From: a virus
Direction: 5' to 3' (one strand)
DNA length: 64,000 bases
IMG/VR virus record: IMGVR_UViG_3300045988_100686
Location: 83,680-147,679 of that record
The position numbers were made by a program, and so were the translations under genes. The stretch's first letter is position 1; each line of letters opens with the position of its first letter. This document shows positions 1,099 to 56,606 of the stretch, piece by piece. Under the pieces are notes generated by a model, which was given only the letters and a program-made list of their open reading frames with translations, was not told where the DNA came from and searched no databases.

Positions 1099-1611
1099 TC
1101 ATCCTTTTGGCATCTGTTTTACTGCGTCAGCAATTGTTTTATATAGAAGAGCTCCAGTTGCTACATTACCTGCAGTAGCTAGCGCTCCAGCGGCACGGGT
1201 CTCATTCTTTGTAATCCCAAGATCCCTAAAGTTTAATGTACCAGACCCATTCTGGATTCTTTGCTTGATTGTCTTGTAAGTGATTAAGAATGATGGTGCT
1301 GAAGCAATAAGTGATGCTACTTGTAGTAAATGTGGTTTTTGACGTGCACTAATAAGTTGTCCAATGTCAATCGTTGTTCTAATTGCACCTTTGATAGCCA
1401 AAGCAGCGACAAGAACAAAGATTTTACGAATAACAAGCTCTTTTTTGCTCAGCTGAAATCCATCTGTTATCTCTTCTTTTGACATTACTGTATGATCTGG
1501 GATTAAGTAAATAGCTGCTACACAGACTACTAGGGGAATACCCTTGCTTATTAAAAACCGTTTTACTTGTTCTCCAATTATATTTGCGAGCATTTGTTCG
1601 TCTCTGCCCAT
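1099..1611 (-). CDS. hypothetical membrane protein (170 aa)
   Basis: ORF track. The start ATG overlaps the TAA of the upstream RNAP gene (TAATG). Hydrophobic segments are present. Confidence 0.5.
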   Translation of the reverse strand: MGRDEQMLANIIGEQVKRFLISKGIPLVVCVAAIYLIPDHTVMSKEEITDGFQLSKKELVIRKIFVLVAALAIKGAIRTTIDIGQLISARQKPHLLQVASLIASAPSFLITYKTIKQRIQNGSGTLNFRDLGITKNETRAAGALATAGNVATGALLYKTIADAVKQMPKG

Positions 1612-4313
1612 TAGTACCTCCCGTCTTTACCTTTTCCGAATCCTGTTCCGCGTGCGTAGGAAGGAATAGGATTATAAGAGTGTAATGGACTACGTGATTG
1701 TGTAGCAGCGTTATCAATAAGCTTCTCTTTTAAGTATTTAAATCCAAAGTTAGCCATCCAATCATGTTTGTAGGTTGGGGCTTTATTGGTACCCTTCTGG
1801 AAGGGAACAAACTTTGGTGGACGCTTGCTAGGATTCTTGCGAATATCTGCTGCTAGCTGGTTATAGTCTACTACGTCTCCTTCAATGAGATCATCAAAAT
1901 CTCCCGGATCAATAATCTGTACGTAGTTTATTAATCCACGAGCGATTACCTCAAAGTTTTTCTTTACACTATCGAGTCCTGCACCATGGTACAGAGTATC
2001 AAGACTCTGAATAAACTGCTTGCGACCAGTATCTATGCCTTTGTAAGGTACAACCTTGCTAATGTTTAGAATACCGTCTGTTAATGGGTCGCCAGCTTCT
2101 ACTCTATCCCCAACCTTTACTTTCAGTGTTCTTGTTGGCGGTATGTAGTACTTCTTACGGCCTATGTATACGTTCTGTCCGCCTGCAGGTGCTGCCTGTA
2201 TGTTTGTGATTGTTCCAGATACTTCAGTAATAACTGCTGCACCACTAAACTTAGTGGACATATTAAAGAACGCCTTTACCGTGTTAAAACCAATTGCCTC
2301 ACCTGCTGCAGTACCTGCTGTATGTTTAGATGACAGGCCTAACTGTGTAAAAGGTTCTGAAATAGCGTGAGCAGATACTACACCTACATTTTCACCGATA
2401 TCAGGGAATTTCAATTTCTCGTTGTACCCGTAGCAATATTGGCATACACCATCATGTGCTTCACATGTAGCTGGGCTACGTACCTCAACCTGAGGAACTC
2501 CACGACGTTTTAATTGTTCATAATAGTTGGCATCGATAAACTTGTTTGTCTTCGCCTCAACACGGTTAATGATATTCTTAGTATCGTTAATGTCACGTAC
2601 TAAACCACGTTTACATCCGCAATCCTTTTTGGTAACTACGATATCAAGTACGTTGCCAATAAGTTCTTTTGCTAATGCGCCTGCAGGAGCTACGGATAGC
2701 TTTGCACCAACAGTACCTTTACGGGTGCCATAGGATGATACAAAGTAATCGGCAGGACTTAGACCCTCGTTGTATGATGTGTGAATCAAGGAAGGAATAA
2801 GTTTATCTTTAGGATCTGCTACTACTGTAGGACTAGTTATGATCTGCATTACTTGTCCTTTTGACCCCTTGGAGCCTGTATATGCCCACTGCTGGAATGT
2901 GTTGTCAGTTGCCTCATCTGTGAGTTTCTGTGCAAATGCCTGAGCTTTACGTAATATCTTGCCTTTTTCTGCATCGACTTGTTTGGGTGTAAGATCTTTG
3001 CGTTTGTCAATATCTGCCAGCTCTTGGTCAATCTTATTGAAGTATATGTTACGCTTTTTCTTCAACTCATCCATATCGAAGTCAGTTGCTTTGTAAGATA
3101 CACCTAATCTATAGGCAAATAATGCTCCCAACTCTTTTAGACCATCAGCAATCCTGGTATATTCTTTTGGCCATCTCTGTCCTACCTGGGTAAGAAGGCC
3201 GCTCATTACGGATTTATTCCACACTTTGTCATAATTACGCAATGGCATTGGGAATAGCTCATTGATAAGTACTGCACCTGCAGTTGTCTTAAACTGTCTG
3301 TATTGAACAGGGGCGTCTGGCTTAATCATTCCCATGCGGATATTTTCGTGAAGCTGTTTAACGTTTTGTACAGGAGTGAATCGTGTACTTTTATCAAACG
3401 TTGGGAGAGTCTTTGTTGCTGCAAATAATCCAAACACTGATTCCTGCTGTGGTAACATCATAGGTCCCATGTTGCGGGGTGAGAATAAGTTGTGACTTGG
3501 AGTCATTTTCTCCAGTGCTTCTAACCTTGCTTCTTCCGTTGCAGGTACATGAAGCTGCATGGTATCATAAACTAGAATACCGTTGGCTATGAAAAGTGGA
3601 AACTCCGGGACCGTGAAGTCGTAAGTTATTTCTTCTCGGTCAACTTCTTCTACAGAAGTCACCTCATCCCATACATATGGCAGGTTTAAATATGGATTTG
3701 CTGGGTTTACCTTAGCTACATCACTGATCTGTACTAGTGCGCCATTCTCTGGTATTCTTACTGCGTTGTAGTCCAAGTATAAACGTGTGTTTACTATTTT
3801 GCAAAAGATACCCTGACGTGCTAGTATTACTTTAGCTAATTCTAGCTCTTGCTTATCCTTTACCTTCCAGTACATACTAGGATTTTCTGTGTTATCTGTG
3901 GTATCAAAGTGGACCATTGCTAACAATGCCGTGCCAAGATCATCTGTTGATAAATTTAGCATATAATATGAAAACTTGTTTGGTTTAAAGTTATCCATTG
4001 CAAACTTACGCATAGCTTTTGCTTGTGCAGTTTTCTTTGGAATATATGATATCATACGCATTATAGGCACGAATTTACCAAGTGCATCCTGGGGAGGTAA
4101 TGGAGCAAAAAATGTTTCACTTCCGTTTGTTGCCAATGAGTGGTCATCGGTTACTGTGATCTCGTAGCCACAAGAGGTGCAGATTCTGTACATCTTCCCA
4201 TGCTCTGTGTGTACACTTCGCTCAGTGTAATCCATGAATTCATTGGTGTTTGTAGCAGGGCAATAGGTTAATACTTTTCCCTTAACTACAGTTGAGTTAC
4301 TTTGGGTACTCAT
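1611..4313 (-). CDS. RNA polymerase beta-prime C-terminal portion, preceded by a 250-aa split-intein C-fragment
   Basis: After residue 250 the protein reads TMQLHVPATEEARLEALEKM, which matches beta-prime QMAVHVPLSxEAQxEA directly after NADFDGD. The N-terminal 250 aa carry intein block B (ITVTDDHSLAT) and blocks F/G (ITYDFTVPEFPLFIANGILVYD). GGAGG lies 12 nt upstream of the ATG. Confidence 0.8.
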   Translation of the reverse strand: MSTQSNSTVVKGKVLTYCPATNTNEFMDYTERSVHTEHGKMYRICTSCGYEITVTDDHSLATNGSETFFAPLPPQDALGKFVPIMRMISYIPKKTAQAKAMRKFAMDNFKPNKFSYYMLNLSTDDLGTALLAMVHFDTTDNTENPSMYWKVKDKQELELAKVILARQGIFCKIVNTRLYLDYNAVRIPENGALVQISDVAKVNPANPYLNLPYVWDEVTSVEEVDREEITYDFTVPEFPLFIANGILVYDTMQLHVPATEEARLEALEKMTPSHNLFSPRNMGPMMLPQQESVFGLFAATKTLPTFDKSTRFTPVQNVKQLHENIRMGMIKPDAPVQYRQFKTTAGAVLINELFPMPLRNYDKVWNKSVMSGLLTQVGQRWPKEYTRIADGLKELGALFAYRLGVSYKATDFDMDELKKKRNIYFNKIDQELADIDKRKDLTPKQVDAEKGKILRKAQAFAQKLTDEATDNTFQQWAYTGSKGSKGQVMQIITSPTVVADPKDKLIPSLIHTSYNEGLSPADYFVSSYGTRKGTVGAKLSVAPAGALAKELIGNVLDIVVTKKDCGCKRGLVRDINDTKNIINRVEAKTNKFIDANYYEQLKRRGVPQVEVRSPATCEAHDGVCQYCYGYNEKLKFPDIGENVGVVSAHAISEPFTQLGLSSKHTAGTAAGEAIGFNTVKAFFNMSTKFSGAAVITEVSGTITNIQAAPAGGQNVYIGRKKYYIPPTRTLKVKVGDRVEAGDPLTDGILNISKVVPYKGIDTGRKQFIQSLDTLYHGAGLDSVKKNFEVIARGLINYVQIIDPGDFDDLIEGDVVDYNQLAADIRKNPSKRPPKFVPFQKGTNKAPTYKHDWMANFGFKYLKEKLIDNAATQSRSPLHSYNPIPSYARGTGFGKGKDGRY
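3564..4313 (-). other. split intein C-fragment (blocks B, F, G; about 250 aa)
   Basis: TxxH block B motif at aa 55-58. The C-terminal NGILVYD is followed by a +1 Thr. The extein resumes with exact beta-prime spacing. Confidence 0.65.
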
Positions 4314-4396
4314 TAAATTTCTAAACCTCCAATCTAATCTAGGTTTCTAAAGATCATTATACCGGGAAATTATGTAACAAAAAATCGTAAAAGTAA

Positions 4397-5633: not shown

Positions 5634-7114
5634 GTAATGAAAATATGGCTTCAGGCTATATAAATTATATTGCTGATGCTAGTACCTCAGTAATTGGACG
5701 TAATAGAGGGAAGTGGGAATTGTCACAAAAGTATGTTCAGTATTTAGATGATACTACTGAATATGCACTTGGACTAATATTTGGACCTTATCAGCTTAAT
5801 CATTTTGGTTGCTACGTAGCAACTAGAATATTTTCTTCTATTCTTACTCCTGGTAAGAAAAACGGGTTAATGACACCCAATGAAGCTCGTGGAGCTATTG
5901 AAGATAATCTTTACTGTGATGTGAATTTGCCGACATTGTTTTTCAATGCCTTGGTGCTCTTAAAATTCATGCAGTTCGGAGACGATACTTTTGCTTCCCC
6001 TACAGCTTTCAAGTATATAAAACGAGTCCAGACAAGTGGATCCCGAGGAACTATTGTTAACATGAAAATTATTCCATTTGTATCTGGGCTTGTTACTCCA
6101 GAGACAATGCTTAAGGGAGTAAAGATCCTGTGTGCAATAGCTGCATTAAAACCAGAGGTATATGAAGCAGTTCAAGAAATATACAATGATATTAATAAAG
6201 AATTACTCAGAAATATAATGGTAAATGCATCTGAATTGCTTGACCTTAGGATAGAGAGTGGCAAAATTGCAATACCTATGTTTAAACTTGGTGCTCCTGG
6301 TATCCCGCTCGAACTTGTACTCGATGATTATAAGGAGTTTTCACTTAAGCTCGAAGAACTTGCCTCTAGAATTTTAGAGGCGTGCAATGGTAGCTTAGAA
6401 GATTTCCTTCAAGCTATATTTGCTCTTGACATTGATAATATAACTACCTATAAGGAGGAAAACACAATGATGGTTGTAACTGAAATACTGAGGAATCTGA
6501 TTAATAAAGGTATACTGATTACTCGTGATGGCAGACTGCTGTCCATCAACATTACTGATGAAGATACTGTTCAGGTTAATCCTTTCAATAATAATGATGC
6601 GGAACGCCCGACTATTGCAAATTTGACCATTGAACGTAACGGTACTACAGAGGAAATCATTACTCTGAAGGATGATAGATTAGAACATATTATTGATACC
6701 GCTCAAAACGTTCTGAATTCTAGTGTAAACAATGCTATCAACAATGACAGAAATGTCAGAGTACAGCGTGCTTCTATGGCATCTGCTACACCTGCTACAC
6801 CGGAAATGCGTAGAAATGCTGACGGGTCTATTTCTGTGCATAGAACAGTTGGCTCTTTCCGTATGTGGGCCCCAGCTACTCCTGCAGAGGCAGCTCAATT
6901 TGAGCGTACACAGCAACAACAAGCTCAACAAGATCAGCTTGCAGCTGGTGAGGATACAGAACGGGATGCCATTGTTGAAACCGTAGAAGATAGTCCTGAA
7001 GATATTGTCATGGTTTCTGTTGTGGAAAACAATAGTGTGCGTGTAAGACGTATGACTCGTGAAGAAGCTGAAGATCAAGAACTTGCTATCGTAAGTGTTA
7101 TTGAAAGACGGTGA
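5630..7114 (+). CDS. hypothetical protein (494 aa) with a Q-rich acidic C-terminus
   Basis: ORF track. It overlaps both neighbours, which suggests translational coupling. Confidence 0.6.
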   Translation: MSNENMASGYINYIADASTSVIGRNRGKWELSQKYVQYLDDTTEYALGLIFGPYQLNHFGCYVATRIFSSILTPGKKNGLMTPNEARGAIEDNLYCDVNLPTLFFNALVLLKFMQFGDDTFASPTAFKYIKRVQTSGSRGTIVNMKIIPFVSGLVTPETMLKGVKILCAIAALKPEVYEAVQEIYNDINKELLRNIMVNASELLDLRIESGKIAIPMFKLGAPGIPLELVLDDYKEFSLKLEELASRILEACNGSLEDFLQAIFALDIDNITTYKEENTMMVVTEILRNLINKGILITRDGRLLSINITDEDTVQVNPFNNNDAERPTIANLTIERNGTTEEIITLKDDRLEHIIDTAQNVLNSSVNNAINNDRNVRVQRASMASATPATPEMRRNADGSISVHRTVGSFRMWAPATPAEAAQFERTQQQQAQQDQLAAGEDTERDAIVETVEDSPEDIVMVSVVENNSVRVRRMTREEAEDQELAIVSVIERR

Positions 7115-7928
7115 TTATACAATGGCTATGAATATTAAAAAGATAGAATTTGAAGACAATTCTGCTGTAGTAACCATGAGGGATCCTGACGAACTTATTG
7201 GTCTTGTACGTAAAAGAGTGTCGATTGATGCTCTAATTCAAGCCCTTGGAAAGATTAGTACATCCCAATCTATGCTTATTCCTCCTAACTGCAGGGGCAT
7301 TTGGGAGACTAAAAACAATAAGTATTTCCTGTTTATCATCCCGGCACACATGGGCAAGACTGCCGTAGTGTGGTATAAAACTGACACTGATAACTATGGA
7401 GCTCCGGGTAGTAGTACTAAGTTGGAGAACCAGCCTGAACATATTCAGTCAATGTATGAAGACTCAGAAGACAGTGACTACATTAGAGTGTTCAACACTC
7501 CATTCCCAGATGCGTGTGTGTTGATTAAAATGACAAAGGCTGGTAGCAATAAACTTATGTTTAATGATATCAGAGCATGGTCTATTAAGAGTACTATGCT
7601 TCCTCTAGATAAAACAGCAGTATACCGCTGGCCGTTCTTTAATATGTATGGTGATGCAAGAGTATGCATTGGTGATATCCCCAGAGAGTATCCTAATGTA
7701 GAATCTGTTGCTAGTATTATTAATTACCTATATATTGGCGTAGGTAACCATGATCTTGATCATACTCCATATGTAATTCCTGATAATAAGTTTGGAATCA
7801 AAAATTCTTTTCAGTTGGTCAAATACCTTGATGAAAACAAGTTGACTGTATTTCCAAGGGAGTTACTGTGTAGTTTTGGTACATCGATCATTGAAACAGT
7901 AGAAAATATTGTTGCTAATGGAAATTAA
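7095..7928 (+). CDS. putative E2-like (UBC-fold) ubiquitin-conjugating-like protein
   Basis: FFNMYGDARVCIGDI resembles the UBC active site HPNIxxxGxICLDIL (Asn, Gly, Cys flanked by aliphatics, Asp). It directly precedes the JAB and E1 genes. Confidence 0.45.
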   Translation: MLLKDGDYTMAMNIKKIEFEDNSAVVTMRDPDELIGLVRKRVSIDALIQALGKISTSQSMLIPPNCRGIWETKNNKYFLFIIPAHMGKTAVVWYKTDTDNYGAPGSSTKLENQPEHIQSMYEDSEDSDYIRVFNTPFPDACVLIKMTKAGSNKLMFNDIRAWSIKSTMLPLDKTAVYRWPFFNMYGDARVCIGDIPREYPNVESVASIINYLYIGVGNHDLDHTPYVIPDNKFGIKNSFQLVKYLDENKLTVFPRELLCSFGTSIIETVENIVANGN

Positions 7929-9793
7929 TGGAGGTAAAAATAATGGCAGTTCCAAACCAATATAATAAATATGCTTCTTTATATACTGTGCCCAAAAAGC
8001 CAGAACTCACAGACGTCCAAAAACGTCTTATTGAACGTATGCAACGTAGTCGCTGCAAAATCTGGGAGTCCTATGCTGCGTATACTGCAGCTGATGAATC
8101 TGATAAGAAACCAGACAATTACTTCCCAACTAAAACTGGTTGGGGTATTGCGCGCAAGCGTGTTCTCAATGGTAATAGTGTGGAGTTCGTTACAACTGTT
8201 CCAGAATGTCCGCTGGTTGATGAAATCCAACCCAAAGTTGTTCTTGATATTCATAATAAAATCCCTGGATCTCTGCTCCAGGAGATTCTTGCAAACTTTA
8301 ACAAAGTATGCGAGGACTCTAATAATGAGTGTGCTGCTCAGATTTACCGTGAGCGAGATGGTGAAAGAAAGTATTTCATTTATTACCCTGAACAAAAGGT
8401 GTCTACTGCTCAAGTAACCTATACTCATGATCCACAGCTCATGGAACTCGCAAAGGCATATGACCTCATCATGGAGCTGCATTCCCATGATTCTATGGGT
8501 GCATTCTGGTCTGGCACAGATGACAGTAATGAGAACACTTGTGGATTCTACATGGTAATTGGCAGATTTAACTCTTCTGTAGTTGAGTACAAATGCCGTG
8601 CAAAACTTGATAAACTGTATGCTGATTTTAATTGCTCTGAAATCTTTGATTTCGGTGACACACCTGAAGAACAAATCCTTACTCGTGAAAACTTTATTGC
8701 TCCGAATGATGAACTGGATAAGAAGATCACAAAAGAAAGCCTTACTTATTATAATGGTGCGTATCAAGCTTGTTATGACATGTGGAACTATGGTGGTTAT
8801 TCTTATCAAGGATACAATGACTATAATTATGGTAAATCAACTAAGAAATCTCAGAGATACCTTGCTAAAACAGAACTGGCTGCACGTAAACGCTTGATGG
8901 CTAAATTGAAGAATGCTCCGGAATCCATCTTCCCGGAAGACGCTCTTTATAATGAGCTCTGGGATCATGCAGACTATATCAAAGCCAGAAAACGTTGGGA
9001 ATGCTGTGGGTACTATGATAACCAGGAGGCCATGAAGGAATGCTGGAAACGAATCCCAAAAAACCAGGCAGGCGCGGAAGAGGAGGTGAGTCAAGACGCC
9101 GTCGTTGCCTCTGATTATGTAACTCGTATGAGCAAGTGCTACTCTGCAGATGGGTTCCAAAATACCCATACAGCTGGTGGAGTTGCCACTGGCATTGAAA
9201 CTGCGGAATATCTTGCTGGTAATGGAGATGAGGCAGCTGCACGTTATGGCACGCTTCCGGGCAAGATTCAACAATACAGTAATTTTGATTTAGATCTTGG
9301 CACTGCTGATGTGAATGACCAAGACTACAATGATAATCTTAATATGGCTGTGGCTAGCAGAACTGAGTCCCAGTCTAACATTGAGACATTCTTGCAGGAA
9401 GGAATGGGCGGGGTCCGTGAAGAGACTGAAAACAAATTTATTGCTAATGTAATGAATATTGCGTTTCTTCACACCCCGTCAGCCAGTATCAACGTCGGAG
9501 TGTTCTGGGAGTTGCTTACACCGGTTGAGAAAACTAGACTGGCAAAAGCATTCCACTGCTCTGTTATGGATCTTGCTACTCTGCTTATTGGCAGCAGCGC
9601 TGTTGTTGCATCTCCTGATGTAGCAGAGTTCCTGTATAAGTGCATCCTTGGTGATGCTAAGTATGTAGAATGTAAGCTTGGTCTTATTACCAGTAAGGTC
9701 ATGGCTGAAAAGCCGTCTACTGCTGCTCAATTTGTAGCACTCATCCATGAGATGCTTGAGGTTGAAAGAGATGTTAAGGAGGCAAAGGAATGA
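7928..9793 (+). CDS. JAB/MPN (JAMM) metalloisopeptidase domain protein (621 aa)
   Basis: A complete JAMM motif is present: E...HSH-DSMGAFW-S-GT-D (HxHx7Sx2D). A large Cys/Trp-rich C-terminal extension follows. The start overlaps the E2-like stop (TAATG). Confidence 0.7.
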   Translation: MEVKIMAVPNQYNKYASLYTVPKKPELTDVQKRLIERMQRSRCKIWESYAAYTAADESDKKPDNYFPTKTGWGIARKRVLNGNSVEFVTTVPECPLVDEIQPKVVLDIHNKIPGSLLQEILANFNKVCEDSNNECAAQIYRERDGERKYFIYYPEQKVSTAQVTYTHDPQLMELAKAYDLIMELHSHDSMGAFWSGTDDSNENTCGFYMVIGRFNSSVVEYKCRAKLDKLYADFNCSEIFDFGDTPEEQILTRENFIAPNDELDKKITKESLTYYNGAYQACYDMWNYGGYSYQGYNDYNYGKSTKKSQRYLAKTELAARKRLMAKLKNAPESIFPEDALYNELWDHADYIKARKRWECCGYYDNQEAMKECWKRIPKNQAGAEEEVSQDAVVASDYVTRMSKCYSADGFQNTHTAGGVATGIETAEYLAGNGDEAAARYGTLPGKIQQYSNFDLDLGTADVNDQDYNDNLNMAVASRTESQSNIETFLQEGMGGVREETENKFIANVMNIAFLHTPSASINVGVFWELLTPVEKTRLAKAFHCSVMDLATLLIGSSAVVASPDVAEFLYKCILGDAKYVECKLGLITSKVMAEKPSTAAQFVALIHEMLEVERDVKEAKE

Positions 9794-11295
9794 AGAAAAC
9801 TGTGTTAGCTATCGGGCCTGCTAGTCCGTATGTGAATCTCTTGGCAACTGTTCAAGAGCATTTAAATGACTTAAGTGTCATTAAACCTAATTTTAATAAC
9901 CTTCATATCATTCAGCTCGGTGCTGGTGGTACTGGCGGTTATGTAGCGTATGAAATACTTCGTATGCTTGGTAATATTCCAGAGGTGTTAAAACCGTATA
10001 TCCATTATACACTGATAGATGGTGATACGTATGAGCCAAAGAATATTGGCAGACAACTTTGCTGTGAAGATGATATCGGTAAGTATAAAGCTCAGGTCCT
10101 CGTTGAAGAGTATGGAGAACTCTTTGGTGTTACTCCAGACCAAGCGTCTCATATCGATGAGTATTTTACTGCTATCAGCCAGCTGGCTGTTCTTCCAAAA
10201 TTCCCTCTGCCAATCTGGTCTGTATTTGTAGACGATGAAGTAGAAAAGTTCTTCAAAGACTCTGAAGCTGCAGTTGCACTTAATTCTAAACAGCCACATA
10301 TCAATGCAACAGCTACGTCATTTATCATTATTGACTGTGTTGACAAAAATGCTCCGCGTAAACTATTACATGATTACTTTACAGATATCTCCAGTTTGCC
10401 CAGTACTTTGGCGCGTCTGAACTATTGTTGCAATGCTGTTCCTGACTGTGATAAGATCACTGCTACTGGGCAGCAAATCATTGCACATAACAACGGTGGT
10501 AACAGCCTGCTTGGAAGTATGTACGGTGTCACCCCGATTCGTGATATCTACATCATCTCATCCGGCAATGGCAAGTATACTGGCCAAGTATCCTGGGGAA
10601 GAAAAAGCTTCCTTGGTAACTCCAGTGGTTCTATGCACTACAAGGATATCTTTGGTGACAAGGATGTATCTTCTATTATTGGACCTAAGATTAATACGAA
10701 TGATGAAGTAGAGGCTGTCGATATTACTCCGGGTATGACAGACGCTGATGTAAACCAGTTGCGGCTTAAAGCATTGGCTGAGGAGTATTTTACACCGTCT
10801 AATGTAAAGAGATTCCAGGATAATGTATTCCAAGAAATTGTGGATCCTGCTACTGGCAGATTGTCAAATGGTTACATTAAGTCTATCCCGATTCCAATTA
10901 CTAACCCAGAGGAACCTGAGCTTGAAACTGGACACCCGATGCTCAAAAACATGAATATGTTCATGTCTGCTTTTATGTCTACACCTACTCCGTATGACAG
11001 GTTCCCGGAGCTTACAGACCTTGAGATTGATGCAAGAGAAGAGGCGATGAGCTGCGCGGAGCGTGCAGAACATAATGTACAGTCTATCAATGCTAATAAA
11101 ACTGCTGCAGCTCTTGTAGTAAATTACTTCACATCTATCTTTAATGGTATGTATATGTTTGAAAAGGAAGTACCCGTTCTTACTACTGAGACTACACGTT
11201 TCAACATATTAACGGGCGAGTACTCTTCTGACCCGATTACTACGGATTCTCTGCGTATCCCTGTGGAAACACGCAAAAGAGTTCGCGCATTTTAA
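9790..11295 (+). CDS. E1-like ThiF/MoeB-family adenylyltransferase (501 aa)
   Basis: Motifs IIQLGAGGTGGYVAYEI (Rossmann GxGxxG), LIDGDTYEPKNIGRQL and EDDIGKYKAQVLVEEY match ThiF/MoeB/E1 signature blocks. ATGA overlap with the JAB gene. Confidence 0.7.
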   Translation: MKKTVLAIGPASPYVNLLATVQEHLNDLSVIKPNFNNLHIIQLGAGGTGGYVAYEILRMLGNIPEVLKPYIHYTLIDGDTYEPKNIGRQLCCEDDIGKYKAQVLVEEYGELFGVTPDQASHIDEYFTAISQLAVLPKFPLPIWSVFVDDEVEKFFKDSEAAVALNSKQPHINATATSFIIIDCVDKNAPRKLLHDYFTDISSLPSTLARLNYCCNAVPDCDKITATGQQIIAHNNGGNSLLGSMYGVTPIRDIYIISSGNGKYTGQVSWGRKSFLGNSSGSMHYKDIFGDKDVSSIIGPKINTNDEVEAVDITPGMTDADVNQLRLKALAEEYFTPSNVKRFQDNVFQEIVDPATGRLSNGYIKSIPIPITNPEEPELETGHPMLKNMNMFMSAFMSTPTPYDRFPELTDLEIDAREEAMSCAERAEHNVQSINANKTAAALVVNYFTSIFNGMYMFEKEVPVLTTETTRFNILTGEYSSDPITTDSLRIPVETRKRVRAF

Positions 11296-11335
11296 GCTAA
11301 CGGTGGGCTCTTTGTGAGTCCACCTTTTATTTTTT

Positions 11336-12325
11336 ATGGAGGTATGCTATATGCAAATCCCAAGTTGGTTTATGGATAAGTATTTTCCAGAAGGTAGCGC
11401 ACGCTCTGCTATAGTCTGTGATGACGGAGAATTAAAATCATTCTTACGAATGGAAGCAGATGATAAGAATGCTGGGTGCGAAATCTTTGGTGATTATAGC
11501 TACGTGGAAGATATCATGGCAGTAATGTGTGAACCTGTTGTGGCCCATGAATTATCACTGCCAGCGCTTGAAGACTTAGTTCCTGATAAATATCATATAT
11601 ATAGGGTTATTCCACCATATTATCTGCAGTTGTGGTACAAATATCAGCTGTCAAATAGGGGCATGACAAGTAGCTATACAGAAGATAAATTTAAGGTTGA
11701 TTTTATTACTGCGTATATCATTGAGTTCCCATGGGAACAGATGTCAAGTTGTAGCAGAAGAAAAACGAGATCAAAAAATGATGTAGACCACTGTATGTAT
11801 GACAAAAATTTATTTAATGCTTGGTGTTATCAAAAAGATACTATTGAGGCTGTAGCACAGTTTCTTAATATCTGTAGAATCCCTGCATCTGAGGAAGAGA
11901 TTGCGAAACTATTTATATCTAGGTTTATCTGGTATAGCTTTGTGACTCAATTGGATCTGCTGGATAGCATAGAAATAGGGGAATGGCTTGATTTTTATAA
12001 TGGAGCACCGTATAGATCAAGATGCGTTGATAGAAACTATGAGTTGAATTCTAGAAAAAGTTGTGGCCACTGGGGTGGTCTCATGGCTGCAGGGATTAAG
12101 ATAAGCCGTATCCTGGAATATCCTAGAAATGCTGATTCAGTAAAATCTAGAGTCTTGCAAAGGGCTAGGCTCTTAGTTGTAATGTTTTGTATGTCCCAGT
12201 CACCCAGAACGGTGAAGCTGATCATTGAAGGTCTTATGACGTTTTCTGCGTCAATATCAGGTACATGGATGTTAAGCATCATTGAACCACTGGTAAGGGA
12301 GGTGGAGCCTTCATGGCTAAAATAA
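11336..12325 (+). CDS. hypothetical Cys-rich protein (329 aa)
   Basis: ORF track, same operon. Confidence 0.55.
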   Translation: MEVCYMQIPSWFMDKYFPEGSARSAIVCDDGELKSFLRMEADDKNAGCEIFGDYSYVEDIMAVMCEPVVAHELSLPALEDLVPDKYHIYRVIPPYYLQLWYKYQLSNRGMTSSYTEDKFKVDFITAYIIEFPWEQMSSCSRRKTRSKNDVDHCMYDKNLFNAWCYQKDTIEAVAQFLNICRIPASEEEIAKLFISRFIWYSFVTQLDLLDSIEIGEWLDFYNGAPYRSRCVDRNYELNSRKSCGHWGGLMAAGIKISRILEYPRNADSVKSRVLQRARLLVVMFCMSQSPRTVKLIIEGLMTFSASISGTWMLSIIEPLVREVEPSWLK

Positions 12326-14145
12326 ATGAGTTTACTATAGTGAGTGAGCTGAATGATGAGTTTAGTCTACGGGTATTTATGGAGTCGGGACAAAAGGTTG
12401 CTCAAGTTAATAATGTCTCTCATGATTTCTTAAGAGAGGCAATGCCTACTAGCAGGCTTGGAATAAGAACTCCAGGACTTGCTCCCTGGCCATCTAAATT
12501 TAAGGAAAATCCAGTTCCTGATGGATACTCTATTGCACTAAGTCATAAGTATACATTTGGGTCGATGTGTCTTAAGATGCTCTTGAACAAGCAAGCCAGA
12601 CACAGATATTTTGCGTTATTACTCGCGTTGTTTGGTAATAATGAAAATACCAGGGAACTTCTCACTGTAATGTTGTTAAGAACGAAGTTTACTGATGAAT
12701 TACGATATTTATGTGAGCAGCTTGACATTTCTCGTATGTCTGTTAGAACCTGGGATAGTGTGGCTATAGACAACAAGCCTGGCAGTGTAAAGTTTAATGA
12801 TGTTAGAAATTCTCCATGTAGTTGGTCGAGTGCACTTAGAAATGGATGTCTTGCTGACGGATATGTACCTCATCCGAACATATGGTTCAGAGATGTGAAA
12901 AATAAAAGTTTGTTTACTAAGATATCCGCTTGTGAGATGTTCCCTAATCTTGCTCCAAAGATCCTGGCAAGCATCCCTAAGTACCCTAAAGGAGGCAAGG
13001 TAGATAGAATTGTAGATATAAGGACTCAGATTCTGTTCAATATGCTGAGAAATGCATATGGACTCAAGTATGAGGATATCATTGTTGATAAGCAGCTAGA
13101 TCTTAATACATATGAAGTTCTATCTTCTCTCTGTGCTATTCTTACTGCTGCTGCAGGATTAGGCGGCAGGGTTTCTATTACTGATATCAGAGGAGTTGAT
13201 CCAGACTTAGATGTAAAATTAAGGTTTAGTCTCTGGTATCGTAATGTAAGATCAAGGATACTGACACTTCAAGGGAATTATGGTGTGGCAGGTGATGCCT
13301 GGCTTATGGACAAACTGCTTACTTCATTAGCTGTTGTAATGAATGCGGGGGATAAACAGGAAAGTGAATTGCTAACGTCGTGTGTACGAGCTGCAGTTGA
13401 TGAAAATGATCTCCAGGAAACCCTTGAGGGATGGGTGTCTAAGAGGAATATCAATATGTATCTTGGTGATACGAATACTTTAAACGCGGTGAATGTTCCC
13501 GCATCTACCTTGAGGAGCATTGAAGATGGGATAGATGACATTGTACAATCACTGTCTGACAAGGATAACATTGTTAAATGCCTAAAAGAACTGGTGCAGC
13601 TTCAGGAGTCTTCTATTAGTGGGAAGGCATTTGATCCTGTCACTACTACTAACTATACAAATATACAGTATAACAACAATGGACTTGTAACTGCGAGCCT
13701 GATTCCAATGATTACAAACAGATTCCAACTACTGGACTACATTTATAGAATGAGTACGTATAGAGAAAACGAGTTTATCTATGATACTATGGGAATCGTA
13801 AACAGATGCTCTAGGACTATAAGTTCCCATGTAAGTTCTTATGAATATAGTATAGGTATTTTGAAGAAATGGGAAGAGTTGCGGGATATTGCACTTGATC
13901 AGGTCTCACACAACGGTTCCGGGTATTTTTCAACTGAAATGTTGTATTGGAGTGCACTGGCTAGAGTTCTGGTAACCGACTGGCAACACTTCTGCAGAAT
14001 CAATGCAGGGAAATCCAGAGATGAGCTGTTTGAGATGTCAGTACTTACGGATAATCCATTCGCTGATATTGAGAACAGTGTCTGCCAAGAAATTGATGAG
14101 TATAAATCTGGATATGCAAGATGGCGTGAAAACAGGTTTAAATGA
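12313..14145 (+). CDS. hypothetical protein (610 aa), last gene of the operon
   Basis: ORF track. The ATGGCTAAAATAAATG overlap suggests coupling. A terminator follows. Confidence 0.6.
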   Translation: MAKINEFTIVSELNDEFSLRVFMESGQKVAQVNNVSHDFLREAMPTSRLGIRTPGLAPWPSKFKENPVPDGYSIALSHKYTFGSMCLKMLLNKQARHRYFALLLALFGNNENTRELLTVMLLRTKFTDELRYLCEQLDISRMSVRTWDSVAIDNKPGSVKFNDVRNSPCSWSSALRNGCLADGYVPHPNIWFRDVKNKSLFTKISACEMFPNLAPKILASIPKYPKGGKVDRIVDIRTQILFNMLRNAYGLKYEDIIVDKQLDLNTYEVLSSLCAILTAAAGLGGRVSITDIRGVDPDLDVKLRFSLWYRNVRSRILTLQGNYGVAGDAWLMDKLLTSLAVVMNAGDKQESELLTSCVRAAVDENDLQETLEGWVSKRNINMYLGDTNTLNAVNVPASTLRSIEDGIDDIVQSLSDKDNIVKCLKELVQLQESSISGKAFDPVTTTNYTNIQYNNNGLVTASLIPMITNRFQLLDYIYRMSTYRENEFIYDTMGIVNRCSRTISSHVSSYEYSIGILKKWEELRDIALDQVSHNGSGYFSTEMLYWSALARVLVTDWQHFCRINAGKSRDELFEMSVLTDNPFADIENSVCQEIDEYKSGYARWRENRFK

Positions 14146-17416: not shown

Positions 17417-18373
17417 TTAAGTCATAGCTTTCTTTGCCATAGATACTACCTTAGTGTCCTCATATACATACATTATTACATCCTCAGAAGACCGCTTATC
17501 ATTGATGTAGATTCCATCTGCAACATATGCTTTAGGGTTATTCACTGACATACTTAGTATTAACTGACTGCCCTTGTTTACTTTGTATATCCCTGGTTTA
17601 CCAAGGTTTGACTGAATAATAGTACCTTCTCCTGCTTCTATACTAACAGTACATGTTTCTCGTTTTCCTCCCTGTGAACTAGGGAGTCTCATAATATAAT
17701 ATTTGCATACATACGGTGTGATTACATTGAATTGTACCACTGATTGGCTAGCCGTACCAGTTTCTGATGAATCTTCCTTGTAACAGTACATCTGCCCACC
17801 AGTACCCGTAGGATAAATTTCTTTATCCCACTGTCCGAATTTTTTATATGCTTCATACCTGCCATTGCTAGAATACACACCAACAATATTGTGAAATTTA
17901 TGTACATGGTTTCTCATAATCGCTGTGGAGTTTACACTATGTACAAATGAGCCACCTTCTTTTCCTATTGGACATGCTCCACTCCAGCAAACAGCAATCC
18001 TCTGGCGTAGGTCCGGTGTTCCATTAACACCATCACAGATAACCCAGTTAGTTGGTACATCACCTAGTTCACCCGCCCATATAGCTATAGAATAGGGAGG
18101 AAAATCATCTTCGCTTAACAAGGATTCTATAAGATCTAGCTCTTTTATATATCCATCAATGAGATCTAGGAGCTCTGGGTAAAAAAATCCATTTTCCGTA
18201 GTTGTTACCCTTGCATGTTCATGGTCTCCCCTTGTACCAGCATGGCGATCCAGCGCTGTAACAGTAGTCTGTACATTGTCTCTCAGTTCTGTAACAAATT
18301 CTTTCTTGATCAGGATATTGTGATACAGTGTTTTATCTGTGTACTCATTGAGTACTACGTCTGAATTTGCCAT
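17417..18373 (-). CDS. tail fiber protein with phage tail-collar domain
   Basis: WVICDGVNGTPDLRQRIAV matches the tail-collar consensus (CDG...tPDLRGR). Confidence 0.6.
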   Translation of the reverse strand: MANSDVVLNEYTDKTLYHNILIKKEFVTELRDNVQTTVTALDRHAGTRGDHEHARVTTTENGFFYPELLDLIDGYIKELDLIESLLSEDDFPPYSIAIWAGELGDVPTNWVICDGVNGTPDLRQRIAVCWSGACPIGKEGGSFVHSVNSTAIMRNHVHKFHNIVGVYSSNGRYEAYKKFGQWDKEIYPTGTGGQMYCYKEDSSETGTASQSVVQFNVITPYVCKYYIMRLPSSQGGKRETCTVSIEAGEGTIIQSNLGKPGIYKVNKGSQLILSMSVNNPKAYVADGIYINDKRSSEDVIMYVYEDTKVVSMAKKAMT

Positions 18374-19947
18374 TACTGACTCACTCCTATTTCTCTAACC
18401 TGCACAGTTCCTCCAATTATTTGAGCTACTAGTGACGCTGAGGCCGCTGTTGCCTCAAGCTTAATAGTAACCAAATGTTTACCTTTATTTAAAGTCATAG
18501 ATGAATACACAGAATTAACCAGCATTTCCCCACTATCTACGTAAGAAAGAGTGTTCGATGCTTCTGTATGTCCATCCAACAGAACATCAACGTTAACTTC
18601 TGCGTCGTCTCTACGATATCCATAGAAATTACTAAAGACTTTCGGTGTGATTTTTACTCTATACGTACCAGATGAAGGTATTTCAAAGTTTACATTGGTC
18701 AAAACATACTTTGTATCCTTGCTCTTTACCTCAACAGTCTCAGAGAAAGGGATAGATATATTGACAATAGGTCCTGGGTCTACACCTATAGATTGAACAG
18801 CACCATTACTACGTGGATCATAAACCCTTCCTGACCATCCACGTTCGGTCACCGTGTAGTCAAGCACTTGCATACCAGGTATGTCATGATCGCTATCAAC
18901 AGTTAGCTTCGTACCATACAAGTAATCCTCATCAGTTACATACTCACCATCGATATAAGTTTTAACTAATTCATTCTGGTTGACTTTAACATTGATGATC
19001 TTGATACCTGTAACACCCACAACGTCCATATCGTCGTAAACCCTGACATAACATGGTGTACCACGACTTTCGCCAGCTACTGTTAGGCTGAGCATCTCAT
19101 GTGCTTCATCAGCACTGAATTCAATAAGTATTATCGTTCCAGATTTAACAGTCTTAGACTCTACTACAGCTCCGTCGATACTGATCTGCCCACCCTCTGT
19201 AGGCTGGTGAACTGTGATAACACAATCTTTGATATTATCATCCCCGCGCATGATAAACGGGACTTTGATGGTTCTAGGAAGCAACTTGTCAATGGTAAAG
19301 CTTGCATTGCCACCAACATAGTCAAACTCATCTTCAAAGTAGCAACTAGAGTTATCCCAGTCCCATGAGCTCAAACGAAGATCATTTGGGATTGGGTTTC
19401 TAAAACCTTCTCCCTTTTCTGTATCATTTGGATAACAGCACCAGCAATTATAAAACGTATGATGATGTGGGACAATTCCTGATGATTTTGCAAGAGTTTC
19501 ATTTATATTTGTTTCACCATTGGAGGAAGAATGGAGGGGATATGTCGCTGTAACACTACCACCTAATACATATTTACCACGTATATCAGGGGTTCCATTT
19601 TGGCCATTACAATAAAACCACTTATCAGGAGGAGCACTCGGCAGTCCATCATACATAACTATAATCCTAGCAGGTACACGTTGATCAACCCTGGATTCTA
19701 GCTCTGATAGCCTATTTTCTATATCACTGATTTCCTTGACTATCTCTGGAGTAATAAATCCAGGCTGCGTGAGAGTTACAGCTTTATGCGCTTCATAGCT
19801 CTCTAGGTTACGGTGATACTCAAGGTCTACATCAATTAATTTTATGTTATTTTCTAATTCAACAAAATGTTTTTCTGATACGGGAGTTTCACCCGAATAT
19901 ATTGGGTTGTCTATCCAGGTGACAACACCAGATATTTGTCTTGCCAT
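18373..19947 (-). CDS. tail fiber protein with tail-collar domain (524 aa)
   Basis: The sequence WFYCNGQNGTPDIRGKYVLGG is present. It is a paralog of its neighbours. Confidence 0.6.
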   Translation of the reverse strand: MARQISGVVTWIDNPIYSGETPVSEKHFVELENNIKLIDVDLEYHRNLESYEAHKAVTLTQPGFITPEIVKEISDIENRLSELESRVDQRVPARIIVMYDGLPSAPPDKWFYCNGQNGTPDIRGKYVLGGSVTATYPLHSSSNGETNINETLAKSSGIVPHHHTFYNCWCCYPNDTEKGEGFRNPIPNDLRLSSWDWDNSSCYFEDEFDYVGGNASFTIDKLLPRTIKVPFIMRGDDNIKDCVITVHQPTEGGQISIDGAVVESKTVKSGTIILIEFSADEAHEMLSLTVAGESRGTPCYVRVYDDMDVVGVTGIKIINVKVNQNELVKTYIDGEYVTDEDYLYGTKLTVDSDHDIPGMQVLDYTVTERGWSGRVYDPRSNGAVQSIGVDPGPIVNISIPFSETVEVKSKDTKYVLTNVNFEIPSSGTYRVKITPKVFSNFYGYRRDDAEVNVDVLLDGHTEASNTLSYVDSGEMLVNSVYSSMTLNKGKHLVTIKLEATAASASLVAQIIGGTVQVREIGVSQ

Positions 19948-19959
19948 GTGTTGTCCTCC

Positions 19960-21540
19960 TTAACATCCTGTAATATAATAAGTTATCGTATCTGTACTAA
20001 GATGATCACCGAGATTAACAACGATAGACTCCAGAGTAAACGACTTAATTGTTGGCTGATCGCTGTCTGGATTAGTATTCCGCAGTTTAACATTGAGTAT
20101 CTTTGTTTTCATCGCTCTAGGTAACACGATTGTTTCAGAAACACCCTGGCTTCCCCATACACTAAGCGTACCATCAGAGTTCTCTACCCAGTTATCACCT
20201 ATAGAATCAGGATCCGATGATATCGTAGCAGCTGCTTTGGTAGTCATTGCAGAAAGTGCAATAACTGTGTTTTCAGCTTCAGCATCAATTGTCACATATT
20301 CTGGGTGATATGCACGAATAGCGAATGTGAGGTTATTCGTATCACATACTTTCCCATTACCAGGATTTCCAATATCTATATTTTCCGATGTAATACACTG
20401 CCCCACCGTTGGCGGGTCTCCAGAACCCGGGCCATAATTATTTCCGCTACCATTCCACCCAATCCCAGTACTACCTGTAGGATATGTTGCATTAGAGTAA
20501 TCGAACCAGCCCCAAGTACCATTGTTGTTTGACCAGCTTCCAATTGCATGATAATGTTTAGAAACTTTCTGCTCAGTAGTACTTAGTTCACCATAGATCT
20601 CATTCACCGCCATACAGCTATTCTGTATAACAGGTAATCGTATCATTCCAGCAGTAGATGATTCTCCAAAGTACGGTACACTGCCATACTTGTTTTTATA
20701 CGAAGTCCATGCAGACTCAGATATTACGAGGTTTGTATTCATTGCATACTGATACAGGCCTCTGTATAACTTTTTTGATACAAGTGACCCATTAAGCTCC
20801 AATAGTCCTTCAGGGGTATTCTTAGACAATACAATGTGTATAGTGCCAACACCATCAGTAACTTCAGGTGCAATCTGTGATGTTTTCTTTATAACTGCAA
20901 GTGACTTATACGGTGGCACAATGTCTACAGATTTTTGACCTCCATTAACATAAGGTATTACAGTCGTCACCGTAGAATCATAATACGCTGACGGCCATAC
21001 TGGAGTTGACCTATCTGAATCAGTTCCAAGTCTATTGCCATAGTATTTTAGTTGCACACCTGTATAACCTGAAATTTCTTTCCAACTTTCTGAGAAAACA
21101 TAGTTATTAAAAGAATGTGTATGTCTTGGGACAGGGAATTCTGTAATATCAACAGAATCCCTGCCAGATACCTCAGTGTACTCACTGTCAGACTTTGCTT
21201 CCATGACGAATTTCCCACGCATATCCAGGGTATCATTACTGCCGTTACAAAGCACAAACCCCTCTGGAATTTCAGTCTCACTTTTTGACCAGTACAACAT
21301 AGAACCTTCTGGTAGCACAGCCTCTTCAGTTCGTTTACGCAGGTCTGCTATTTGCAGCTTGAATCCTAGCAGCTTGTTATACAAGTCTTTATCCATGAAT
21401 CCTGGGTGCTCCGTAGTTCCTACCACATGAGCATCACCCCCGGAACCAATGTGGTCACGTATCTTTTGTGCGATGCCTTCAAGGCTGTTTCGTAGTTCAG
21501 GTATTTTCTCCTTGATAACTACCTTGTCTTTCACTGTCAT
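19960..21540 (-). CDS. tail fiber protein with tail-collar domain (526 aa)
   Basis: The sequence FVLCNGSNDTLDMRGKFV is present. It shares a 60-aa near-identical block with 45483..46445. Confidence 0.6.
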   Translation of the reverse strand: MTVKDKVVIKEKIPELRNSLEGIAQKIRDHIGSGGDAHVVGTTEHPGFMDKDLYNKLLGFKLQIADLRKRTEEAVLPEGSMLYWSKSETEIPEGFVLCNGSNDTLDMRGKFVMEAKSDSEYTEVSGRDSVDITEFPVPRHTHSFNNYVFSESWKEISGYTGVQLKYYGNRLGTDSDRSTPVWPSAYYDSTVTTVIPYVNGGQKSVDIVPPYKSLAVIKKTSQIAPEVTDGVGTIHIVLSKNTPEGLLELNGSLVSKKLYRGLYQYAMNTNLVISESAWTSYKNKYGSVPYFGESSTAGMIRLPVIQNSCMAVNEIYGELSTTEQKVSKHYHAIGSWSNNNGTWGWFDYSNATYPTGSTGIGWNGSGNNYGPGSGDPPTVGQCITSENIDIGNPGNGKVCDTNNLTFAIRAYHPEYVTIDAEAENTVIALSAMTTKAAATISSDPDSIGDNWVENSDGTLSVWGSQGVSETIVLPRAMKTKILNVKLRNTNPDSDQPTIKSFTLESIVVNLGDHLSTDTITYYITGC

Positions 21541-23637: not shown

Positions 23638-24444
23638 TTACGGAGTAGTGGTGGTAGTAGTTGTCTTTGCAGCAATAGCTGCCAGTACTTCTTGAGTAGA
23701 CAGGCGGTTCTTGAGGTCAGAGATCTCACTGTTTTGACGGTCAATAATACGAGACTGCTCACGCATCTCCAGTTGACAGAATTTATCATTGATAATCTGA
23801 GTCTGTGCATCAATCTTAGCACCAAGAATGTTGGTTTGCTGTTGCATCTGAGTGCTCAGAGCATTAGTTTGATTGATTATCTGCAGCTGATTTTCATAGT
23901 TAGATGTGGTAATCGCATTTTTAATTTCGCAGCAGCAAGCCTGCATACGGCTCATCATATCTGCATTTCCAGACTGAATAGCATTGACAACCTGTTGAGT
24001 AGACATACCTACTTGTCCAGCAACTTTATCAATACCACATTGGATAGCATTAAGTGCAGTAGGTACAGAGTTCATATCACAGTTAAGAGCTGAGCTGATA
24101 CGTTCAATAGCTTCTTTGTTGCCATTAACAGCTTGGAGCATTAACTGGTCACTTACTCCGGCAGCTTGAGCCTTAGCTATAGCAGTTTCTACTGCGCCGG
24201 TAATAGCTGCGTCATTAATTGCTGCACCAGCGGCATTCTGACCTCTGTTTCCAAACAGTCCACCATTACCGTAGCCAAATAGCAGAAGCAGGAAAATCCA
24301 TAAGAAGCCGTTGTTTCCACCAATTCCATTGTTGTCATTGTTTTTCACTGCATTTTGCAAAAAGTTCGCCAGGTCAAGGGACATATTCTCATTCATAGTC
24401 AGTTTCCTCCTATACGTAGACGATAGTGCACTGGATCCATTCAC
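23638..24444 (-). CDS. hypothetical protein with Gly-rich N-terminal TM segment, Q/N-rich coiled coil and poly-Thr tail
   Basis: ORF track. The true start is probably the internal MNENMSL. Confidence 0.45.
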   Translation of the reverse strand: MNGSSALSSTYRRKLTMNENMSLDLANFLQNAVKNNDNNGIGGNNGFLWIFLLLLFGYGNGGLFGNRGQNAAGAAINDAAITGAVETAIAKAQAAGVSDQLMLQAVNGNKEAIERISSALNCDMNSVPTALNAIQCGIDKVAGQVGMSTQQVVNAIQSGNADMMSRMQACCCEIKNAITTSNYENQLQIINQTNALSTQMQQQTNILGAKIDAQTQIINDKFCQLEMREQSRIIDRQNSEISDLKNRLSTQEVLAAIAAKTTTTTTTP

Positions 24445-52266: not shown

Positions 52267-52442
52267 GTAACTGGATAATCAAAGAACTAGAGAAAAAGGC
52301 TTGGGCTGAAGCTGTCTTTCCAGAGATTGACAAATTTTATGCCAAAATGCTAGAGCGTGGCACAAGAAGATTTGTCATGACGGGAGTGCAAGAAGGCGCA
52401 ACTTACGCAAGCAAACAAAACAAGAGAAAGGATGGTAAATAA
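52263..52442 (+). CDS. small basic protein (59 aa) translationally coupled between the 545-aa gene and the RNAP gene
   Basis: ATGA overlaps the upstream stop and TAATG overlaps the RNAP start. MSNWIIKELEKKAWAEAVF... It falls below the 60-aa track cutoff. Confidence 0.4.
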   Translation: MSNWIIKELEKKAWAEAVFPEIDKFYAKMLERGTRRFVMTGVQEGATYASKQNKRKDGK

Positions 52443-56557: not shown

Positions 56558-56567
56558 CTTTATTGCT

Positions 56568-56596
56568 CCCCTAGGATTAACCTAGGGGATTTTTCT
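56568..56596 (+). terminator. rho-independent terminator after the RNAP gene
   Basis: The arms cccctagg and cctagggg flank an attaa loop, followed by aTTTTTc. Confidence 0.7.
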
Positions 56597-56606
56597 TATC
56601 CAAATT

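Follow-up and report, generated by a model that had tools for sequence, protein, structure and literature searches.

How does a virus make a complete RNA polymerase (RNAP) when the gene for the rear part of its beta-prime subunit opens with what looks like a piece of an intein? The question is raised by a stretch of 64,000 nucleotides (nt) of IMG/VR virus record IMGVR_UViG_3300045988_100686 (positions 83,680 to 147,679 of that record), here called the window, whose minus strand encodes a protein of 900 amino acids (aa) near its left end. The initial annotation had proposed that the first 250 residues of this protein are the C-terminal fragment of a split intein, and that homology to beta-prime begins only behind them. 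The best reading of our results, which we consider likely, is that the window carries a naturally and atypically split intein of the class 1 type, and that protein trans-splicing would restore the catalytic loop of beta-prime as DFDGD-TMQLHVP. The two intein pieces are called IntN and IntC below, and the genes that carry them the N gene and the C gene. The C gene and its parts are located as follows.

1611–4313, minus strand: C gene, an open reading frame (ORF) of 900 aa with its ATG start at 4313
4326–4330, minus strand: GGAGG ribosome-binding site of the C gene, 12 nt before the ATG, as seen in the sequence itself
3564–4313, minus strand: IntC, residues 1–250 of the 900-aa protein, with a candidate N2/NX motif, block B, N4, an apparent endonuclease remnant, and blocks F and G
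4128–4154, minus strand: block B, VTDDHSLAT, IntC residues 54–62, in which Thr55 is B:7 and His58 is B:10; invariant in 13 non-identical family sequences
3684–4058, minus strand: insert of about 125 residues, IntC residues 86–210 approximately, probably one degenerate LAGLIDADG half-domain
3564–3632, minus strand: blocks F and G, EITYDFTVPEFPLFIANGILVYD, IntC residues 228–250, in which Asp232 is F:4
3561–3563, minus strand: Thr251, the putative +1 nucleophile and residue 1 of the C-extein; invariant in the family
1611–3560, minus strand: C-extein, beta-prime from past the Mg-binding DFDGD loop to the C-terminus, residues 252–900 plus the stop codon (Pfam RNA_pol_Rpb1_3, _4 and _5; tblastn)

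That residues 1–250 form an intein C-fragment is borne out by both a profile match and the predicted structure described below. The Pfam Intein_splicing profile matches residues 34–248 of the 900-aa protein (E 9e-9; 35.7 bits, gathering score 35.8) over profile positions 42–153 of 155, and because the match begins only at position 42, the block A end is absent from IntC. The strings that had been quoted for block B and blocks F/G are present in the ORF, the former at residues 49–64 (GYEITVTDDHSLATNG) and the latter at residues 228–250. Homology to beta-prime begins at residue 251, not at residue 1, according to the junction alignment and to tblastn, in which the matches to phage and bacterial beta-prime start at query residue 250. 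After the end of IntC the C gene reads T251-MQLHVPATEEARLEA; its sequence from residue 251 onward is TMQLHVPATEEARLEA.

The complementary N-fragment was found on the other strand, at the end of a gene for a fused beta/beta-prime-N protein. A six-frame search of the window showed that DFDGD occurs in it once, at nt 56462–56476, as residues 1341–1345 of the N gene. The parts of this gene are the following.

52442–56557, plus strand: N gene, fused beta/beta-prime-N, 1371 aa
52442–56476, plus strand: N-extein, beta and the N-terminal part of beta-prime, residues 1–1345, ending in ADFDGD (Pfam Rpb2 domains 2, 3 and 6; Rpb1 domains 1 and 2)
56477–56554, plus strand: IntN, 26 residues, SVAGDTQVLVQDLHGNITLKQIKDVE, comprising block A with the putative nucleophile Ser1; stop codon at 56555–56557
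56567–56599, plus strand: hairpin and T-run resembling an intrinsic terminator, 10 nt past the stop codon of the N gene; stem at 56567–56589, 9 base pairs, six of them G-C

The tail behind DFDGD (SVAGDTQVLV...IKDVE) contains SVAGDT.V.V, which fits block A, and its Ser1 is Ser1346 of the N gene. The split falls between blocks A and B, and the IntN of 26 aa lies under the mark of about 40 aa for atypically split inteins. Since IntN carries only block A, the split is atypical, with a short IntN and a long IntC, and is not at the canonical position after block B/N4. The N gene is 33–35% identical over 97% of its length to gp206 of Salmonella phage Arash and to Vibrio phage D69. Within the window the genes of IntN and IntC lie 52 kilobases (kb) apart on opposite strands, and the genes between them encode tail, E1/E2/JAB and other proteins. 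Judging from the sequence, the N and C genes are real and separately expressed; we take them to be so because the N gene is followed by the terminator-like hairpin and the C gene has its own ribosome-binding site and ATG. Terminator-like sites number three in this 600-nt region, against 0.2 expected in shuffled sequences, and a scan for sigma-70 promoters upstream of the C gene gave nothing above chance.

Joining residues 1–1345 of the N gene to residues 251–900 of the C gene yields a chain of 1995 aa. Its alignment with E. coli beta-prime and with the RNAPs of the two nearest phages has no gap at the junction, so the exact spacing that had been claimed for the restored beta-prime sequence is confirmed. 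Excision would give DFDGD-TMQLHVP, compared with DFDGD-QMAVHVP in E. coli; the predicted spliced chain reads ...GFAADFDGD-TMQLHVPATEEAR..., and the predicted junction peptide is GFAADFDGDTMQLHVPATEEAR. At +1, E. coli has Gln, and Arash and D69, which lack the intein, have Ala; Thr+1 is therefore not needed by the polymerase itself. In the window the Mg-binding loop itself is interrupted, directly behind the third Asp of DFDGD, whereas in the intein-less relatives beta-prime is broken approximately 86–95 residues downstream.

Relatives of IntC are few. Only four were obtained by a word-indexed search of 5.8 billion clusters, and an exhaustive profile search of 1.84 billion representatives gave seven at E below 1e-29, all of the split type; eight close C genes and eight N genes were found in IMG/VR. 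In a set of 13 non-identical IntC sequences (38–57% identical to the IntC of the window) and 16 IntN tails, Ser1, Thr55, His58, Asp232, Tyr249, Asp250 and Thr+1 are invariant, as is an HT.HG motif across the 13 IntC sequences, and the insert drifts. The splicing motifs are thus far better conserved than the insert, which is a signature of purifying selection. Seven proteins (P0005–P0011) with 52–99% identity to the terminal part of the N gene share the reading DFDGD-SV[AS]G[DE]T; they stop 26 residues past DFDGD in six cases and 25 in the other (P0008), and the IntN tails of the IMG/VR relatives have the same length or, in three, six more residues. Both halves are present on four IMG/VR contigs, with the C and N genes always on opposite strands and the following spacings.

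151.7-kb contig: 56 kb
161.6-kb and 158.8-kb contigs: about 52–55 kb (across the contig ends)
69.7-kb contig, more distant: 24 kb

The genomes of the relatives are about 150–160 kb in size. In three Logan contigs (L003–L005) gene calling divides the beta-prime-C gene, at 10001–12693 on the plus strand, into two ORFs (501 and 396 aa) that overlap, and in the IMG/VR relatives it is one ORF of 897–905 aa; the division stems from a frameshift or an error of sequencing, or else marks a further, genuine break. The nearest cultured phages, Salmonella phage Arash and Vibrio phages D69, D181 and D148 (30–35% protein identity), have the same beta/beta-prime-N fusion without an intein, and read A-D-Y-D-G-D followed by Ala. 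Megablast comparison of the window's first 25 kb with the phages in GenBank gave no close relative, only a single chance-like match of 54 base pairs (window 23774–23827), 94.5% identical to a gene labelled 'spike protein/glycoprotein' in cr1_1, a crAss-like phage of human faeces. The family was also sought in 185,579 bacterial and archaeal genomes, in which only block F/G-level matches to unrelated inteins, and no clue to a host or prophage, were found.

The residues that are expected to carry out the last steps of splicing depart from the usual ones. Positions in blocks F and G were assigned by alignment to the Pho CDC21 intein ('PEHHNFIANGIFVH'). Tyr249 stands at the place of the usual penultimate His (G:6) and Asp250 at that of the usual terminal Asn (G:7); F:13 is Pro239, not His, and block F contains no His at all. 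The initial annotation had rightly singled out the terminal Asp, which proves to be a conserved trait, invariant in the family and common to contiguous inteins at the same site, but its list of unusual residues was incomplete, because it left out the loss of the penultimate His and of the block F His. That the terminal Asp is a sequencing error for Asn was rejected, since all 13 sequences share it and it shows covariation with further residues. IntC has four cysteines (C18, C45, C48 and C171), none of them conserved, and is thus not literally cysteine-less. About 20 residues before block B lies a candidate NX motif, HT[EKN]HG, in which His38 and also His35 are invariant; the residue preceding His38 is Lys in most family sequences and otherwise Glu or Asn. 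An NX motif whose His, preceded by Lys or Arg and represented by His68 in PolB16, is specific to Ser1 inteins has been described (Pasch et al. 2023; PMC10189870), and the HT.HG histidine, accompanied here by Ser1 and Thr+1, is consistent with being its counterpart.

The same insertion site is occupied in many other phages known from metagenomes. The distant matches of our profile are giant beta/beta-prime fusions (2000–3000 aa) with contiguous inteins; 18 of the matched proteins bear the motif, and in 13 of these an insertion follows DFDG[D/N] directly and the sequence resumes with Thr in every case. Further inteins at the beta-prime DFDGD site were found in IMG/VR.

Contiguous inteins: L054, L056, L062–L065, L067 and L070
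Other splits with a short IntN: 44 aa in L071–L073 and L075; 32 aa in L045, L046 and L049
Canonical split: L068, with adjacent genes on one strand, an IntN of 134 aa and an IntC ending in VSVFD-C

The different split positions at one site suggest, from the sequences, several independent splitting events in one intein allele. Ten same-site inteins with Ser or Cys as first residue were compared at their termini. Five end in Asp, and each of these has an aromatic residue in the penultimate position and lacks a block F His, like the family of the window; the five that end in Asn or Gln all have the penultimate His, and four of them the block F His. This covariation of the aromatic penultimate residue, Asp and the absence of His argues for a co-adapted subtype and not for decay. 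To our knowledge, the atypically split inteins already known (of the AceL-TerL, GOS-TerL, VidaL and PolB16 OarG type) end in Asn. Five contiguous same-site inteins end in [Y/W/F]-Asp before Thr and amount to inserts of 277–537 residues, which presumably must be spliced out of the catalytic loop, so that the aromatic-Asp terminus is presumably competent. Termini of Asp, Gln or Glu can cyclise in step 3 of splicing, about 5% of functional inteins have no penultimate His at G:6, and F:13 is described as 'less conserved' (PMC4031507).

Other peculiarities were seen at this site. The Cys1 inteins that end in aromatic-Asp (P0134, P0238, P0242 and P0263) all have Asn at –1 (ADFDGN-C...[Y/W/F]D-T), and Glu replaces the block B His ([SC][DE]NES[LI]). 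Their canonical splicing would leave DFDGN-T, without the third catalytic Asp; a shift of register by one residue would yield DFDG-D-T, and no known chemistry supports such a shift. Four giant fusions (P0129, P0139, P0245 and P0131) have the metal-binding motifs ADFNGD, ADHNGD, ADYNGD and ADHDGD, the second catalytic Asp being replaced by Asn in three. They also carry a second intein, with Ser1, in the beta part (...N[AR]KS-V[ST]G[DN][ST]...VVHN-T), and nothing matched the N-terminal half of the profile better than this beta-part intein. In five intein-less IMG/VR sequences (L050–L053 and L057) the empty site reads DFDGD-AMTVHVP, DYDGD-TMMVHVP or DFDGD-SVSVHLP; some empty sites thus already have Thr or Ser at +1 and are potential homing targets. 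The beta/beta-prime gene is unbroken in L050, and is broken about 86–89 residues downstream in L051–L053 and L057.

Do the two pieces of the window together fit an intein fold? AlphaFold2 modelling of fused IntN and IntC reached a predicted local distance difference test (pLDDT) score of only 37 from the single sequence, and of 91.1, with a predicted template modelling (pTM) score of 0.89, from an alignment of 23 rows, in which family members are combined with distant contiguous inteins. In this model IntN scores 91–93, and the pLDDT dips to 79–80 only at the artificial junction and exceeds 90 on both sides of it. Foldseek against the PDB with the fused model gave inteins and Hint domains only, the top ones being endonuclease-bearing (best match PhoVMA, 9e-9; TliVMA with a query TM-score of 0.73). 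A hidden Markov model built from the 23-row alignment found no second intein among the ORFs of the window.

The insert, in alignment with the contiguous same-site inteins, falls on their second LAGLIDADG motif: DLGTALLAMVHFDTTDN of IntC aligns with LLAGLLDGGSTV and LGIFCGLLDGDGTV, and the next helix, ELELAKVILARQGI, with LKNDILLLTKFLGI. It holds one LAGLIDADG-like helix only (DLGTALLAMVH), where intein-borne endonucleases of this type have two, each with a catalytic acidic residue; this helix has no conserved Asp or Glu and varies or is deleted among the relatives; the insert as a whole is the most variable region of the family, with insertions and deletions, and no Pfam LAGLIDADG match at E<=1 was found in the 900-aa protein. 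From these alignments the insert looks like one dead LAGLIDADG half-domain, an assignment that we make with weak to moderate confidence and that retains the degenerate endonuclease proposed initially; the length of about 130 residues given then was too great, and approximately 110–125 is nearer. The insert is probably kept for folding reasons. An apparent dead LAGLIDADG half-domain within IntC points to descent from a contiguous endonuclease-bearing intein, an ancestor that would have been broken after block A by a genome rearrangement.

We infer the association of the two pieces and every chemical step from the sequence anatomy, the predicted fold, the conservation and the gene arrangement. 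The first gene would give beta/beta-prime-N followed by the 26-residue IntN, and the second the 250-residue IntC followed by the rest of beta-prime. The two proteins would associate through their intein pieces, completing one Hint fold; an N-O acyl shift would occur at Ser1; the N-extein would be transferred to Thr+1, forming a branched ester; Asp250 would then cyclise and release the intein; and an O-N shift would finally produce a normal peptide bond in a beta/beta-prime chain of 1995 residues. Assignment to class 3 was rejected, as Ser1 is present and a WCT motif is not. A bacterial intein-like domain was rejected too, because there is a nucleophile at each junction and excision restores the host sequence.

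It is possible, although we regard it as rather doubtful, that the aromatic-Asp, His-less inteins of the DFDGD site form a distinct mechanistic subclass, in which cyclisation of Asp to an anhydride would resolve the branched ester and dispense with the histidines usual at F:13 and G:6. The member that is split would then be a fast trans-splicing pair of natural origin, independent of cysteine and with a synthesisable IntN of 26 residues, and would act as a temporal AND gate, by which the polymerase would become active only when both separately located and separately transcribed genes are expressed.

Several points weigh against trans-splicing in the window. The F:13 His, the G:6 His and the G:7 Asn are all replaced, so that splicing could be slow, or the reaction could stop at cleavage. 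Multisubunit RNAPs of phages work as non-covalent assemblies of fragments (PMC7598289), and ligation is thus not strictly required in principle; the RNAPs of jumbo phages and of the nearest relatives, Arash and D69, function with split, unligated beta-prime fragments. The structural model, moreover, is of an artificial fusion and draws on an alignment that includes contiguous inteins, so it speaks for compatibility with the fold and not for association in trans. The replaced residues and the unligated polymerases would suit an arrangement, already raised in the initial annotation as non-covalent docking, in which the intein pieces serve only as a high-affinity heterodimerisation module, or in which IntC only removes itself by cleavage, leaving an RNAP that is nicked after DFDGD and held together non-covalently. 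We consider this improbable. A docking module needs neither Ser1, the block B Thr and His, Asp F:4, the terminal Asp nor Thr+1, all of which are invariant at an overall identity of 38–57%, and Thr+1 deviates from the residue in the intein-less homologues. If docking were all, the contiguous inteins with the aromatic-Asp terminus before Thr at the same site would leave 277–537 residues in the catalytic loop, and the known non-covalent breaks lie elsewhere, about 86–95 residues downstream of the loop.

A decaying remnant, in which intein and split gene would be non-functional leftovers of a rearranged RNAP gene in a phage that uses the host polymerase, is very improbable. Its ORFs would hardly be expected to stay intact over 1371 and 900 codons, with length and sequence kept in at least eight IMG/VR genomes (C gene 897–905 aa) and all RNAP Pfam domains retained, even though the endonuclease part is clearly degenerate and the C gene appears as ORFs of 501 and 396 aa in some Logan assemblies. 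That the gene is truly contiguous, and its split an artefact of chimeric assembly or a frameshift in a metagenome-like sequence that has no closely similar reference genome, is scarcely credible, given that the position of the stop past block A agrees, to within a few codons, in independent ENA, JGI and MGnify assemblies and in IMG/VR, that a terminator follows the N gene and the C gene has its own ribosome-binding site and ATG, and that the long-range layout on opposite strands recurs on four independent contigs.

Trans-splicing, as the preferred explanation, has a parallel in the DnaE inteins of cyanobacteria (Ssp and Npu), where an essential polymerase subunit is made by trans-splicing from two distant genes on opposite strands, an arrangement that is stable across the lineage. 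Those inteins have the canonical split (IntN about 102–123 aa, IntC about 36 aa), Cys1 and Cys+1, and a terminal Asn, and are cellular, not viral. The intein of the window thus resembles DnaE in its distant, opposite-strand genes, and differs from it in split position, nucleophiles, terminus and viral setting. The 'fractured genes' of Dassa et al. 2009 (gp41-1, NrdJ-1 and IMPDH-1) are reportedly phage or metagenomic genes that are broken within an intein and repaired by trans-splicing; their halves are said to be neighbours around a free-standing endonuclease gene, with a canonical split. In contrast, 52 kb separate the halves in the window, which are inverted relative to each other, and IntC itself appears to contain the endonuclease remnant. 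The canonically split L068, whose halves are adjacent on one strand, roughly fits the layout of the fractured genes.

AceL-TerL, GOS-TerL, VidaL (PDB 6vgw) and PolB16 OarG (PDB 8cpo; PMC10189870) are likewise atypically split, with a short IntN. However, their IntC is of the mini type (about 100–170 aa) without an endonuclease remnant, as compared with 250 aa and an apparent dead LAGLIDADG half-domain in the window; their hosts are terminase, UvsX or PolB, whereas here the host is RNAP beta-prime, the terminus is Tyr-Asp and block F has no His. In its chemistry the intein of the window groups with the Ser1/Thr+1 oxyester inteins. The cysteine-independent split inteins Aes123 PolB1 (PDB 9hth) and Neq Pol (PMC10189870) differ from it in split position, terminal residue and host protein. 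The contiguous same-site inteins (e.g. P0168, P0238 and P0129) share the exact insertion point, after DFDG[D/N] and before Thr, with 27–46% identity over the splicing blocks, and P0168 has Ser1, block B xxDH, the aromatic-Asp terminus and Thr+1 in common with the split family. They are single-chain, mostly have a LAGLIDADG domain in which both motifs are recognisable, and include no close relative of the split family; they are, as far as could be found, database sequences and not described entities. The archaeal inteins of RNAP A' and A'' (Mja rPol A', Mja and Nph rPol A''; PMC1635734, PMC4760082) lie in the homologue of beta-prime (COG0086), which is the RNAP's largest, catalytic subunit, and are likened to the present one by host protein; unlike it, they are contiguous and archaeal. 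PI-PkoII (PDB 2cw7/2cw8), a contiguous intein of 537 aa with an active LAGLIDADG endonuclease in an archaeal DNA polymerase, is 18% identical to the intein of the window.

The kind of mechanism proposed is thus known, but its place, the catalytic loop of RNAP beta-prime, appears undescribed, and its chemistry would be unusual, with a Tyr-Asp terminus and no block F His; IntC also keeps an apparent endonuclease remnant. Neither an intein at DFDGD nor one in a multisubunit RNAP of a phage was found described in the literature searched, which need not be the whole literature; the Jug-phage paper mentions RpoC and inteins separately and not together, and inteins go unmentioned in the mReC paper on Caudovirales that encode an RNAP. 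If the proposal is true, the catalytic Mg-binding loop of a phage RNAP would be absent until two proteins from distant genes are ligated, making for an extra post-translational step in the production of the phage transcription machinery, and the DFDGD loop would be a recurrent intein target across many uncultured phages. Naturally split Ser/Thr inteins without Cys have been described as very rare and sought after (PMC10189870). A short IntN permits semisynthesis, and the combination of a 26-aa IntN, Ser1/Thr+1 and an Asp terminus would be new starting material for engineering. The intein would also offer a natural test case for the last splicing step without Asn and two helper histidines, and, as a split intein that apparently still carries half of a dead homing endonuclease, an intermediate in intein evolution.

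Some neighbouring genes may be noted. A ubiquitin-like conjugation cassette adjoins the C gene in divergent orientation (window 7095–11295, plus strand) and is kept in the related contigs L003–L006, and genes for a terminase and a reverse transcriptase lie towards the right edge of the window.

7095–7928, plus strand: Prok-E2_D
7928–9793, plus strand: Prok-JAB
9790–11295, plus strand: ThiF/E1-like
59906–61522, plus strand: terminase large subunit, GpA_ATPase, followed by an ORF of 219 aa
62238–63857, plus strand: reverse transcriptase, 539 aa (RVT_1, E 5e-16), ending near the window edge

In L003–L005, the region at approximately 18015–20445 (plus strand) encodes another Hint/Hom_end_hint protein of 777–809 aa, which follows the beta-prime-C gene downstream at a distance of about 6.5 kb and may represent a second intein-bearing gene; the equivalent region lies beyond the left end of the window. 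Rfam over the whole window gave nothing at gathering scores, including no group II intron RNA. The 539-aa reverse transcriptase could be a group II intron protein, the enzyme of a diversity-generating retroelement, or a reverse transcriptase of the defence type.

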